Assembly: GCA_944371605.1 (NCBI GenBank)
Contig: CALVXU010000015.1
Span: 9,686 to 73,685 of the forward strand
Reading direction: 5' to 3'
Length of the DNA stretch: 64,000 nucleotides
Source of the DNA: an uncultured Bacilli bacterium
GTDB lineage: Bacteria > Bacillota_I > Bacilli_A > RFN20 > CAG-288
Position numbers and translations under genes: made by a program. The notes under the pieces were generated by a model. That model did no database searches. It saw only the letters and a list, made by a program, of their open reading frames with translations, and was not told where the DNA came from. Positions 22,107-23,576 of this stretch are shown here, piece after piece; the stretch's first letter is position 1; each line of letters starts with the position of its first letter.

Positions 22107-23576
22107 TTAAATTCCTAAATCATTTTCTTCGATCGGAGAAGAAATCTTAATCATGAATGAACATACTACATTTTTATCGAAAACATCCACTTGATATTCA
22201 CCTGCTTTTTCAATCTTAAAAAGATTGCTCTTATAATTTTTGATATCTTTAGTAGTAGCTACTTTTTGCCCATTCACAGAAATATAAATTGAATCATGTT
22301 GACCGCTTAGATAAAACTCAACCTGATAAAGATTTGTAGGACTATAGTCAAGTTCTCTATTCTTAACTATCAGTTCTTCATCAAGCGGAATATCTTGCTT
22401 AACACGGTTGTTTAGTGATTGTGTAGAAACATCATGAAGAGTCTTTTGAGAGCTATCGACTCCAGCATATTTTTCATATTCTTTAATATCTTTGATGTCG
22501 ATGTGTTTCCTAATTTCATCTGCCTCTCTGATAAAGTCTGCCATAGTGATATTGACAATCGTGTCACCTTTAAACGAAGCTACTAATGCGCGTTCTTTGG
22601 CTTTATCACATAAAAGGAACATATCAGCTCCAGAAAAATTATCAGTTATAGCCGCTAATTGATTAATGTCAACATCAGAATCCAAAGGTAATTTACTTAC
22701 ATTCTTAATAAGCATTCTTTTTCTTTCTTCATAATTTGGTAGTCTGATATAAATCTTTGTAGAAAAGCGGCCACTTCTTAATGCAGCACTATCAATACTC
22801 CAAGGTTTATTAGTAGAACCTAATAACAACAGATTAGGATTCTTTCCTGTGAAGCCATCAATCTGCTGTAAAAATTCATTTACACGGCGATCGTTATGTA
22901 TATCTAGACCGCGTGAGGCGAATAGAGTATCCATCTCATCGATGAAAATGATGCTTCTTTCATCTTTGCCTACAGCCTCAAATAATGAAGCGATATTTTT
23001 TTCAGATTCTCCAACCCACTTAGAAACAATATCAGATGAACGGACTAGATAAAACTTAGCTTTCACTTCATGGGCAACTGCTTTCGCTAACATCGTTTTA
23101 CCAGTGCCAGGCGGGCCATATAACAAAACTCCGCCACCGCTTTGTTTCTGATAAATCTTATATTTTTCTGGATACATCAAAGGATAGATCATGGCGATCT
23201 TTATCTCTTCTTTCGCCTCATCTAAACCGATGATATCATCGAATGAAACGTCTGGTGCTTCAGTGCATTGCCATATTTTTTTATCATCATCGCTATTAGC
23301 TTTATTTTTAATACCATTTGCTTTGTTTGTAGGAGCACGAGATGTATTCATGTTTTCTAATGTTAAATCATCAGCATATTTGACAAGTCTATTGGCTTTT
23401 TCTATCCGGGCTTTTTTTAATTCAGTTGTGGAAGATTTGCTCGCTAAAAGCAACTGCTGAGCAGCTAAATAATAATTGCGCTTAGCAAGATCAAGATTAC
23501 CATTAGCTTCATATTGTTTGGCTAAACGAAGATAATGGTCATATTTGTCCATTAAAAAGCTAACATTATTACCCAT
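22107..23576 (-). CDS. MIT-domain AAA+ ATPase of the Vps4/katanin/spastin (meiotic) clade, with an extra C-terminal beta-rich domain
   Basis: The N-terminus [33 protein letters not shown]...[17 protein letters not shown] is MIT-like. The AAA core is [35 protein letters not shown] (compare Vps4 SSDLVSKWMGESEK), [36 protein letters not shown] (compare Vps4 [25 protein letters not shown]). Confidence 0.8.
   Translation of the reverse strand: [489 protein letters not shown]

Follow-up and report, generated by a model that had tools for sequence, protein, structure and literature searches.

A bacterial operon encoding a Vps4-like MIT-AAA ATPase and a Snf7-like protein, probably an ESCRT-III/Vps4-like membrane module with immunity-type partners

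A stretch of 64,000 nucleotides (nt) from an uncultured Bacilli bacterium of lineage CAG-288 was analysed (assembly GCA_944371605.1, contig CALVXU010000015.1, positions 9,686 to 73,685 of the forward strand); this whole stretch is called the window, and its own coordinates are used below. On its minus strand, at 22107-23576, lies a gene for an ATPase that has a MIT-like domain at its N-terminus, a single AAA cassette and a C-terminal DUF7862 domain, and the gene before it in the operon encodes a Snf7-like helical protein. [quoted passage not shown] We hold these two statements jointly as probable, with a good deal of room left for doubt.

The original prediction, made from the sequence, described the ATPase as a Vps4-clade MIT-AAA protein and as the disassembly or remodelling motor of two adjacent ESCRT-III-like proteins. 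It was upheld in part: the identity of the ATPase and its gene linkage stood up, and the second ESCRT-III protein and all the interactions stayed putative. The conserved membrane partner with TPR or TIR domains and the immunity-type context had been left out of that prediction, and these lead to a rival hypothesis about the substrate of the motor.

Domain organization of the ATPase

The open reading frame (ORF) at 22107-23576 is real, starting with ATG on the minus strand and encoding 489 amino acids (aa). All protein strings quoted for it were found at residues 15-46, 55-71, 150-170, 180-193, 209-216 (IIFIDEMD) and 253-280 and in the C-terminal ...MIKIS stretch, and the Vps4 strings quoted for comparison were genuine, yeast Vps4 114-437 matching PDB entry 6bmf_A over all 324 residues. 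The gene and its parts are as follows.

22107..23576, minus strand: MIT-AAA-DUF7862 ATPase, 489 aa (ORF with ATG start; Pfam, NCBIfam, AlphaFold2, neighbour-joining tree)
23367..23564, minus strand: MIT-like three-helix bundle, residues 5-70 (AlphaFold2, Pfam MIT, PDB profile matches)
22461..23264, minus strand: single AAA cassette with lid and C-terminal helices, residues 105-372 (motifs, Foldseek)
22137..22379, minus strand: C-terminal beta domain, Pfam DUF7862, residues ~400-480, followed by a conserved acidic-hydrophobic tail (AlphaFold2, DUF7862 scan)

The AlphaFold2 model of the ATPase, run with 51 homologs, had a mean predicted local distance difference test (pLDDT) value of 83.9. It began with three helices (residues 5-24, 28-46 and 51-70, pLDDT ~91-97), so that the three-helix MIT-like bundle proposed for the N-terminus was borne out at the level of the model. 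An AAA module from ~105 to ~382 followed, with a lid and, after the lid, two terminal helices (361-371 and 375-382), and disordered linkers were seen at 77-97 and 379-398. The additional C-terminal beta domain that had been proposed was also recovered in the model as eight strands at ~400-480 with pLDDT 92-95, and then the chain ended in a short tail of low confidence.

Scanned at full length against Pfam, the ATPase matched AAA (150-278, 132.7 bits), AAA_lid_3 (301-336) and weakly DUF7862 (418-477). When the N-terminal 95 residues were scanned alone, MIT was the best family, with 13 of 30 relatives matching (best E 1.9e-6), and a family profile of the N-terminus gave 14 matches in the PDB, eight of which were MIT domains, including several entries of VPS4B, Sulfolobus CdvC (2w2u) and a chitin synthase (2mpk). 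DUF7862 reached 27.7 bits (cutoff 27) on the C-terminal fragment alone and matched 14 of 20 relatives. Vps4_C gave no match at E <0.01 in the Pfam scan of the window ATPase, and it was recorded for ~25 among the best 120 homologs.

All the catalytic motifs were intact, namely Walker A GPPGTGKT, Walker B IIFIDEMD, the sensor-1 Asn and two arginines within LRSGRF, from which the enzyme is predicted to be probably active. SKWVGESEK at residues 185-193 was the aromatic pore loop 1 (K-W-hydrophobic-G-E) of a single classic-clade AAA cassette. At the extreme C-terminus, the tail G-I-x-E-N-D-(L/F/M)-(G/D)-I was conserved in all DUF7862-bearing ATPases (22107-22136 in the window, low pLDDT); it has the look of a short motif for docking, perhaps with the BrxL-like ATPase encoded downstream.

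Placement of the AAA cassette

NCBIfam gave the CdvC equivalog NF041006 as the best match of the ATPase (residues 13-370, 205 bits against a cutoff of 650), followed by PAN (194), CDC48 (191) and FtsH (182 bits), all of them far below the cutoffs. True orthologs score far higher, since CdvC of Nitrosopumilaceae compared with crenarchaeal CdvC reached 430 bits. In Foldseek the tightest single-domain superposition was with Vps4 of M. sedula (4d82_B, TM-score 0.89, root-mean-square deviation (rmsd) 2.3 A), against 0.82 and 3.5 A for p97 D2 (3cf0); the E-values were alike for p97, Vps4 and PAN, and the search with the full ATPase did not part Vps4 from p97 D2. Raw similarity was undecided as well (p97 D2 179.5 bits, Sulfolobus Vps4 178 bits), and therefore a neighbour-joining (NJ) tree was built.

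The tree held 70 AAA cassettes over 257 columns with 200 bootstraps. Its bacterial part was composed of members of the window family, four other MIT-AAAs (Chloroflexota, Phycisphaerae, Borkfalkia) and the second cassettes of two-AAA variants. CdvC was represented by Thaumarchaeota from the fetched loci and by three Crenarchaeota transcribed from PDB alignments, and the other references were yeast Vps4, human p97 D1 and D2, archaeal and bacterial Cdc48-like D1 and D2, PAN and E. coli FtsH. A scan of a genome collection with the generic pattern LYGPPGTGK returned mostly archaeal Cdc48, which supplied reference sequences and few true family loci.

The window family, the other bacterial MIT-AAAs, the second cassettes and Vps4/CdvC formed one group in 200 of 200 bootstraps, with all Cdc48 D1/D2, PAN and FtsH cassettes outside it. 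Placement with FtsH or Cdc48 had been named beforehand as the outcome that would refute the prediction; the cassette grouped with CdvC/Vps4, and therefore this test did not refute it. Inside the group, in this NJ tree of limited taxon sampling, Vps4/CdvC (76% support) and the bacterial assemblage (82.5%) were sisters, and the window family was not nested in the former.

In the arginine-finger region of the alignment the window protein has ALRSGRF, CdvC has FLRRF, yeast Vps4 has IRRRF, and Cdc48, PAN and FtsH have LRPGR(F/L), so that the (L/R)RRF finger without the x-G insertion, typical of Vps4/CdvC, was absent from the window protein. A deletion of 2-3 residues before Walker A was present in Vps4 and CdvC and not in the window protein. 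Among the aligned sequences, N.PW..D occurred only in the window family, the other bacterial MIT-AAAs and Vps4/CdvC. The motifs had been described as aligning residue for residue with Vps4, which does not hold, given the two-residue indel at the arginine fingers (LRSGRF against (L/R)R--RF) and the difference before Walker A; nor is SKW.GESEK specific to Vps4, as it was also found in an archaeal Cdc48 D2 domain. Of the Vps4-clade assignment, the grouping with Vps4/CdvC was therefore retained and membership was given up, in view of the Cdc48-like arginine-finger and pre-Walker-A states and the CdvC score.

The Snf7-like neighbour

Two helical proteins are encoded before the ATPase in the operon.

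23569..24156, minus strand: Snf7/ESCRT-III-like protein, 195 aa, starting MSIFKSK (Pfam of relatives, PDB profile, AlphaFold2, Foldseek)
24143..24727, minus strand: helical protein, 194 aa, starting MWPFKKNKFKKL (hhalign link to the Snf7-like family)

The stop of the 195-aa gene overlapped the start of the ATPase gene by 8 nt, and this adjoining of an ESCRT-III-type gene and the ATPase gene was kept in most loci. Snf7 was the commonest and top Pfam family among the relatives of the 195-aa protein (11 of 21, best E 7.8e-5) and was flagged as weak on the ortholog in locus L086. A profile of the family searched against 177,635 PDB sequences found CHMP2A (7zcg_B) as the best match, collinear over 17-150 with E 0.049, and hhalign gave a probability of 39.5% between the family and CHMP2A. 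Searches of the PDB with the single 195-aa and 194-aa sequences returned only noise.

In the AlphaFold2 model (pLDDT 73.5) the 195-aa protein folded into four long helices, at 7-48, 52-109, 113-148 and 158-194, which together with the short basic/aromatic N-terminus MSIFKSK gave the layout of ESCRT-III, a helical-hairpin core with further helices. The top 50 Foldseek matches of this model were mostly ESCRT-III proteins, with CHMP2A at rank 2 (probability 0.98), Loki CHMP4-7, CdvB, CdvB2, CHMP1B, PspA, Vipp1 and CHMP3. The C-terminal helix was conserved and amphipathic, passing from acidic to basic, and a strict MIM1 pattern, (D/E)xx(L)xxx(L)xx(L)(K/R), was present in it in 9 of 48 relatives, compared with 0.8% of shuffled tails. 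The protein is regarded as a divergent Snf7-type ESCRT-III protein. A PspA-type identity was set aside for both neighbours, as they gave no PspA_IM30 matches.

For the 194-aa protein, neither Snf7 nor PspA was matched by Pfam or by the PDB profile. Its family was closed and compact, with 111 clusters among 1.84 billion representatives and no bridge to Snf7 in a profile search. The first profile comparison of the two families gave a probability of 0.2%, and a signal emerged only after sequences of Chloroflexota and other loci were added to the Snf7-like alignment (34-58% over ~165 collinear columns, against at most 0.4% for reversed and column-shuffled controls). In most loci with enough sequence its gene stood directly upstream of the Snf7-like gene. 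It is possibly a weak, distant paralog of the Snf7-like protein, so of the two adjacent ESCRT-III-like proteins proposed at first, the 195-aa protein was upheld and the 194-aa protein was left with no Snf7 signal of its own and a weak profile-profile link.

The operon and its conservation

The ATPase gene is the fifth of a tightly packed row on the minus strand that starts at 26256 and ends at 15705. Its genes overlap or lie 1-18 nt apart throughout, and they are predicted to be translationally coupled. In the order of transcription the row encodes the SPFH-zinc-ribbon protein, the 127-aa protein, the 194-aa and 195-aa proteins, the ATPase, the BrxL-like ATPase, the 1040-aa TIR protein and a probable lipoprotein. 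The five members not described above are given below.

25120..26256, minus strand: SPFH/Band-7 protein with C-terminal double zinc ribbon, 378 aa, first of the row (Pfam Band_7_1 87.7 bits, Zn_Ribbon_1, DZR)
24727..25110, minus strand: small helical protein, 127 aa from TTG (ORF; homolog in this position in 42 of 42 loci)
20666..22105, minus strand: BrxL-like ATPase, 479 aa, without Lon protease domain (TIGR02688 388 bits, cutoff 329; Pfam BrxL_N and BrxL_ATPase; PADLOC BrxL 578 bits)
17547..20669, minus strand: TIR membrane protein, 1040 aa (TIR_2 42.5 bits at 186-295; five C-terminal transmembrane (TM) segments at ~884-1023)
15705..17528, minus strand: probable lipoprotein, 607 aa, last of the row, starting 18 nt after the TIR gene (signal-like N-terminus with Cys)

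The small helical protein probably starts at the ATG five codons downstream of the TTG, and no significant family match was obtained for it in Pfam, NCBIfam or PADLOC. The BrxL-like gene starts one base past the stop of the ATPase gene. The N-terminus of the 1040-aa TIR protein carries CxxC pairs, read as a zinc ribbon from sequence only, and its helical region is homologous to the TPR-bearing partners of related loci. The 607-aa lipoprotein had no Pfam family match and was not seen in related loci, so its membership of the system is uncertain.

Related loci were gathered by looking up the encoding contigs and by a metagenome scan, and they were scored with hidden Markov models (HMMs) built for this analysis, the counts referring to loci with enough sequence. 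About 60 loci kept the order SPFH-zinc-ribbon, small helical, 194-aa, Snf7-like and MIT-AAA, mainly on Clostridia-type contigs, and the named relatives came from metagenome-assembled genomes (MAGs) of Clostridia and Christensenellales. The components were found as follows.

SPFH gene upstream: 41 of 42 loci
Small helical protein: 42 of 42 loci
Snf7-like gene after the 194-aa gene: at least 44 of 52 loci (42 by script; two of its ten misses, L089 and L094, do list one)
Family MIT-AAA: 33 of 34 loci
Large TPR or TIR membrane protein: 29 of 32 loci
TIR by HMM: 14 of 32 loci

TIR, trypsin-like and BrxL-like genes accompany this cassette of genes, and four architectures could be distinguished.

Architecture A: short AAA of ~380 aa, an extra 119-aa gene and a TPR-TM protein of ~1270 aa
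Architecture B: one or two TPR-TIR proteins of ~570 aa between Snf7-like and AAA, then a trypsin-like protease
Architecture C (that of the window): AAA-DUF7862, an optional trypsin-like protease, the BrxL-like ATPase and usually a TIR-TM protein
Architecture D: two-AAA fusions

Three loci of architecture A (L004, L090 and L091) had bPH_2 and a short-chain dehydrogenase in common among their flanking genes, and in two of them mscL and a SAM synthetase gene were nearby as well; these shared flanks suggest vertical inheritance and not mobility. Some loci of architecture C lay beside recombinase or FtsK genes, and one related locus adjoined the sporulation genes yabP and yabQ. An HMM of the 119-aa gene (L004, L090, L091, L101 and similar loci) also matched segments of the large TPR and TPR-TIR proteins, and this gene appears to be a stand-alone fragment of their repeat region. 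No relatives of the 195-aa or 194-aa proteins were found on IMG/VR viral contigs, and on this ground a prophage origin was set aside.

The pair of Snf7-like and MIT-AAA genes was also present in two Chloroflexota loci, one of which had two MIT-AAA paralogs. In the latter, a Chloroflexota MAG (L007, 1384-7936), MIT-AAA paralogs of 398 aa and 380 aa are encoded on both sides of the Snf7-like gene, with a 236-aa coiled-coil protein upstream and an 879-aa PQQ-beta-propeller/TPR/zinc-ribbon protein downstream. Here the bacterial module takes a second form, with other equipment.

Every one of the 9 loci whose AAA protein carries DUF7862 also encodes a BrxL-like ATPase, against none of the 23 others (Fisher 3.6e-8, shared ancestry not being corrected). 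The idea that the C-terminal domain tethers the motor to another component of the operon gained support from this coincidence, and the candidate partner would be the BrxL-like ATPase.

Proposed mechanism

From the domain content, clade, Snf7 likeness, synteny and co-occurrence that the programs returned, we infer a scheme of interactions, polymerisation, ATPase action and biological role. The Snf7-like protein, probably with its distant 194-aa paralog, would polymerise on the cytoplasmic face of the membrane, where the SPFH-zinc-ribbon protein would organise or recruit the polymer. The MIT domain would dock on the amphipathic helix that is conserved at the C-terminus of the Snf7-like subunit, and the hexameric ATPase would then thread subunits through its SKW pore loop, so that the polymer would be disassembled or remodelled as it is by Vps4. 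In the variant of the window, DUF7862 and the tail would dock the BrxL-like ATPase, being a probable docking element, and the TIR-TPR membrane protein would serve as a sensor or effector arm. The coupling to the BrxL-like and TIR-TPR proteins suggests, through guilt by association, that the cell remodels or repairs its membrane as part of a response in immunity or conflict.

Alternative explanations

Several observations weigh against this reading as an ESCRT-III/Vps4-like module and are brought together here with the alternatives that they favour. Some apply to the immunity-type variant: the association of DUF7862 with BrxL-like genes was counted over loci that are not independent, the link to an immune response is one of gene company, and PADLOC recognised no complete defence system here.

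The alternative that survives best is that the MIT-AAA protein has another true client, either the large membrane protein with TPR/TIR or the BrxL-like ATPase, and that the motor activates, extracts or recycles an immune effector with the Snf7-like proteins as accessory scaffolds; we consider this a minority possibility. Some MIT-AAAs do pair with TPR/TIR proteins only. In Candidatus Borkfalkia (L009, 323-11104) a MIT-AAA follows a TIR-region giant of 3218 aa with a CxxC N-terminus, and there are no ESCRT-III-like genes; the N-terminal ~280 residues of the window TIR protein, covering its CxxC and TIR region, are 31% identical to this giant. Published bacterial pairs of VPS4-like and TPR+6TM proteins, in which snf7 is 'displaced', are of the same kind (PMC11237479). 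The TPR/TIR protein with TM segments, present in 29 of the 32 loci, is sometimes encoded between the Snf7-like and AAA genes, and in two loci (L134, 8293-10030; L135, 128-1900) a gene of the 194-aa family was followed directly by the MIT-AAA gene, without a Snf7-like gene. If these two loci are real, the 194-aa protein can act as the sole helical partner.

However, in the window and in most loci the Snf7-like gene comes directly before the AAA gene and overlaps it, and the binding of ESCRT-III is what MIT domains are best known for. The C-terminal helix of the Snf7-like protein is conserved and MIM1-like, although that of the window protein, DDVEASLADLDKKLQEKL, does not fit the strict pattern. 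Furthermore, the Chloroflexota retain the pair of Snf7-like and MIT-AAA proteins with a different large partner. The two explanations are compatible and not mutually exclusive.

An improbable alternative is a generic quality-control unfoldase like Cdc48 or FtsH, in which the N-terminal bundle would be merely TPR-like, the neighbours would be unrelated coiled-coil proteins, and no ESCRT-like function would exist. It would account for the equal scores with p97 D2 and Vps4, for the similar Foldseek E-values of p97, Vps4 and PAN, and for the Cdc48-type arginine finger. The matches of the window proteins themselves fell under the Pfam gathering cutoffs, the N-terminus of the ATPase matching MIT with E 0.0032 and 18 bits (cutoff 30) and the 195-aa protein alone giving no Snf7 match, and the structural matches of the helical proteins were noisy, those of the 195-aa model having E-values all >0.2 and showing an enrichment only. 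The tree, made by NJ only from 70 domains, was without katanin, spastin, fidgetin, Asgard Vps4 and Meth_adaptin Vps4, and the ATPase is, by its sequence, a sister lineage with ancestral, Cdc48-like states and no Vps4 ortholog.

Against the generic unfoldase stands the grouping with Vps4/CdvC in every bootstrap, with Cdc48 D1/D2, PAN and FtsH apart. MIT and Snf7 were each the top family across the relatives, CHMP2A was the single best PDB sequence match and fully collinear, eight of the 14 PDB matches of the N-terminal profile were MIT domains, and the gene order was near-invariant over ~60 loci.

That the protein is instead an IetA-like anti-phage ATPase of an ATPase-protease pair (IetAS), working with the trypsin-like protease of related loci and with the membrane genes incidental, is the least credible of the alternatives: PADLOC IetA models gave 126 bits and NCBIfam IteA 107 bits, and in many related loci the AAA gene is followed by one for a trypsin-like protease. 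On the other side, the IteA score is far under its cutoff of 510, and the matches lie on the AAA cassette, a generic part. No protease gene is present in the window, the protease IetS is of another type, and the membrane genes are the invariant part of the locus in which the protease is optional. The identity as IetA was rejected, as the scores were far below the cutoff.

Comparison with known systems

The ESCRT-III/Vps4-like module was compared with described systems, and no description of the window operon was found in the literature searched. With Vps4/CdvC the ATPase shares the N-terminal MIT-type bundle, the disordered linker, the single classic AAA cassette, the C-terminal helices, the SKW.GE pore loop, the N.PW..D motif, an ESCRT-III-type gene immediately upstream and the nearest position in the tree. 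It differs in having no beta-domain insertion in the lid and no pre-Walker-A deletion, in LRSGRF instead of (L/R)RRF, in the extra DUF7862 and conserved C-terminal tail, and in its bacterial host. To judge from sequence, the operon would act like an ESCRT-III/Vps4 module and yet depart from Vps4/CdvC in the arginine-finger signature and the curated score.

In the archaeal 'Meth_adaptin' loci (Makarova et al. 2024), SPFH and zinc ribbon, ESCRT-III and Vps4 occur together, and Ig-like beta domains are part of the system (PMC10936438). Those loci, likened here by description and not by sequence, are archaeal; they have adaptin-appendage, GOLD and ProX components, none of which turned up here, and they lack the BrxL-like ATPase and the TIR protein. 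In B. subtilis, according to a work cited in the same paper, the SPFH protein YdjI localises PspA, which belongs to the ESCRT-III superfamily (PMC10936438). The pspA-ydjGHI operon is comparable in that an ESCRT-III-superfamily protein is encoded with an SPFH and a zinc-ribbon protein (YdjI/YdjL) and is implicated in membrane targeting and envelope stress. The helical protein of the window matches Snf7 and CHMP2A, however, and not PspA_IM30, and PspA systems are without a Vps4-like ATPase (PMC7619361). A 2025 review states that a Vps4-like regulator appears to be absent from bacteria (PMC7619361).

Ravi et al. 2024 described VPS4-like ATPases of bacteria in whose operons a TPR+6TM gene has displaced snf7, and also some associations of bacterial Snf7/PspA proteins with other AAA+ proteins (PMC11237479). 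Their linkage of a bacterial MIT-AAA with a large TPR+TM-type protein resembles that in the window, whose 1040-aa TIR protein with five TM segments fits the type of partner. The window operon differs in retaining the Snf7-like, second helical and SPFH genes; it is not among the operons described there, and the lineages listed were without Firmicutes/Clostridia (PMC11237479).

The likeness to BREX BrxL and TIR effectors lies in the downstream gene above the TIGR02688 cutoff, in TIR_2 in the next protein, and in the variable accessory genes with some recombinase flanks. The BrxL-like protein has no Lon protease domain, and no other BREX genes (PglX, PglZ, BrxA-C) were present among the scanned operon genes. 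In many BrxL proteins the C-terminus carries a relative of MIT_C, which is the PLD-fold domain of MITD1, a protein that binds ESCRT-III (PMC12065111); no such extra domain was found in the 479-aa protein of the window by the Pfam scan. The link between BrxL and ESCRT may be more than coincidence.

Surroundings of the operon in the window

Directly upstream of the operon, at 26521-28218 (minus strand), a 565-aa protein with two DEDDh-type exonuclease-like halves is encoded, which matched the PADLOC model 'DEDDh, CRISPR-associated' with E 1.3e-11 and had Pfam matches below cutoff. At 28986-34409 (minus strand) lies a gene of GC ~26% for an 1807-aa protein, in which GT2 glycosyltransferase regions (two or more) and a methyltransferase region are combined with a SLOG cluster-4 (LOG-like) domain at the C-terminus. 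SLOG domains are connected with nucleotide signalling in conflict systems. On the other side of the operon, three consecutive overlapping ORFs (9966-14176, minus strand) encode proteins of 507, 635 and 267 aa, the last rich in coiled-coil-like sequence, and they had no Pfam match at E <=1e-5.

The GC content was 26-35% from ~2 kb to 35 kb and 36-43% around rpoBC, and the rpoB and rpoC of the window are of bacterial type. A tRNA gene (35130-35200, minus strand) is located between rpoC (35239-39162) and the low-GC block. This block, which includes the operon, is possibly a genomic island for which the tRNA gene was the insertion site. Scans for promoters and terminators were uninformative, promoter-like sites being no commoner than in shuffled sequence.

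Significance

A Vps4-like regulator of the bacterial relatives of ESCRT-III is said to appear absent, and for their disassembly the locus provides a concrete and widespread bacterial candidate. One operon, predicted to be translationally coupled, joins a subunit of Snf7 type to a Vps4-like motor and a partner of the SPFH family, and through it the binding of helices by MIT, the disassembly of polymers and the repair of membranes become open to direct tests in bacteria. In its make-up the locus resembles, in bacterial form, a machine for membrane remodelling that recent reviews restrict to archaea and eukaryotes, and it bears on the time at which the partnership of ESCRT-III and Vps4 originated.

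A bolder view, which we put forward tentatively and as less likely to be right than wrong, is that bacteria have a genuine, vertically maintained ESCRT machine, composed of a Snf7-type ESCRT-III protein, a Vps4-type MIT-AAA protein and an SPFH organiser, in which the ATPase is the sister of archaeal and eukaryotic Vps4 and one derived branch was recruited as the membrane arm of TIR/BrxL-type immunity. If this is true, the partnership of ESCRT-III and Vps4 would be no archaeal invention, or it would have moved between the domains very early.

Membrane repair mediated by ESCRT occurs during eukaryotic cell-death pathways. The coupling to TIR, trypsin-like and BrxL-like proteins suggests a previously undescribed link of ESCRT-like remodelling to prokaryotic immunity, and such a link would parallel the membrane repair seen in those pathways.

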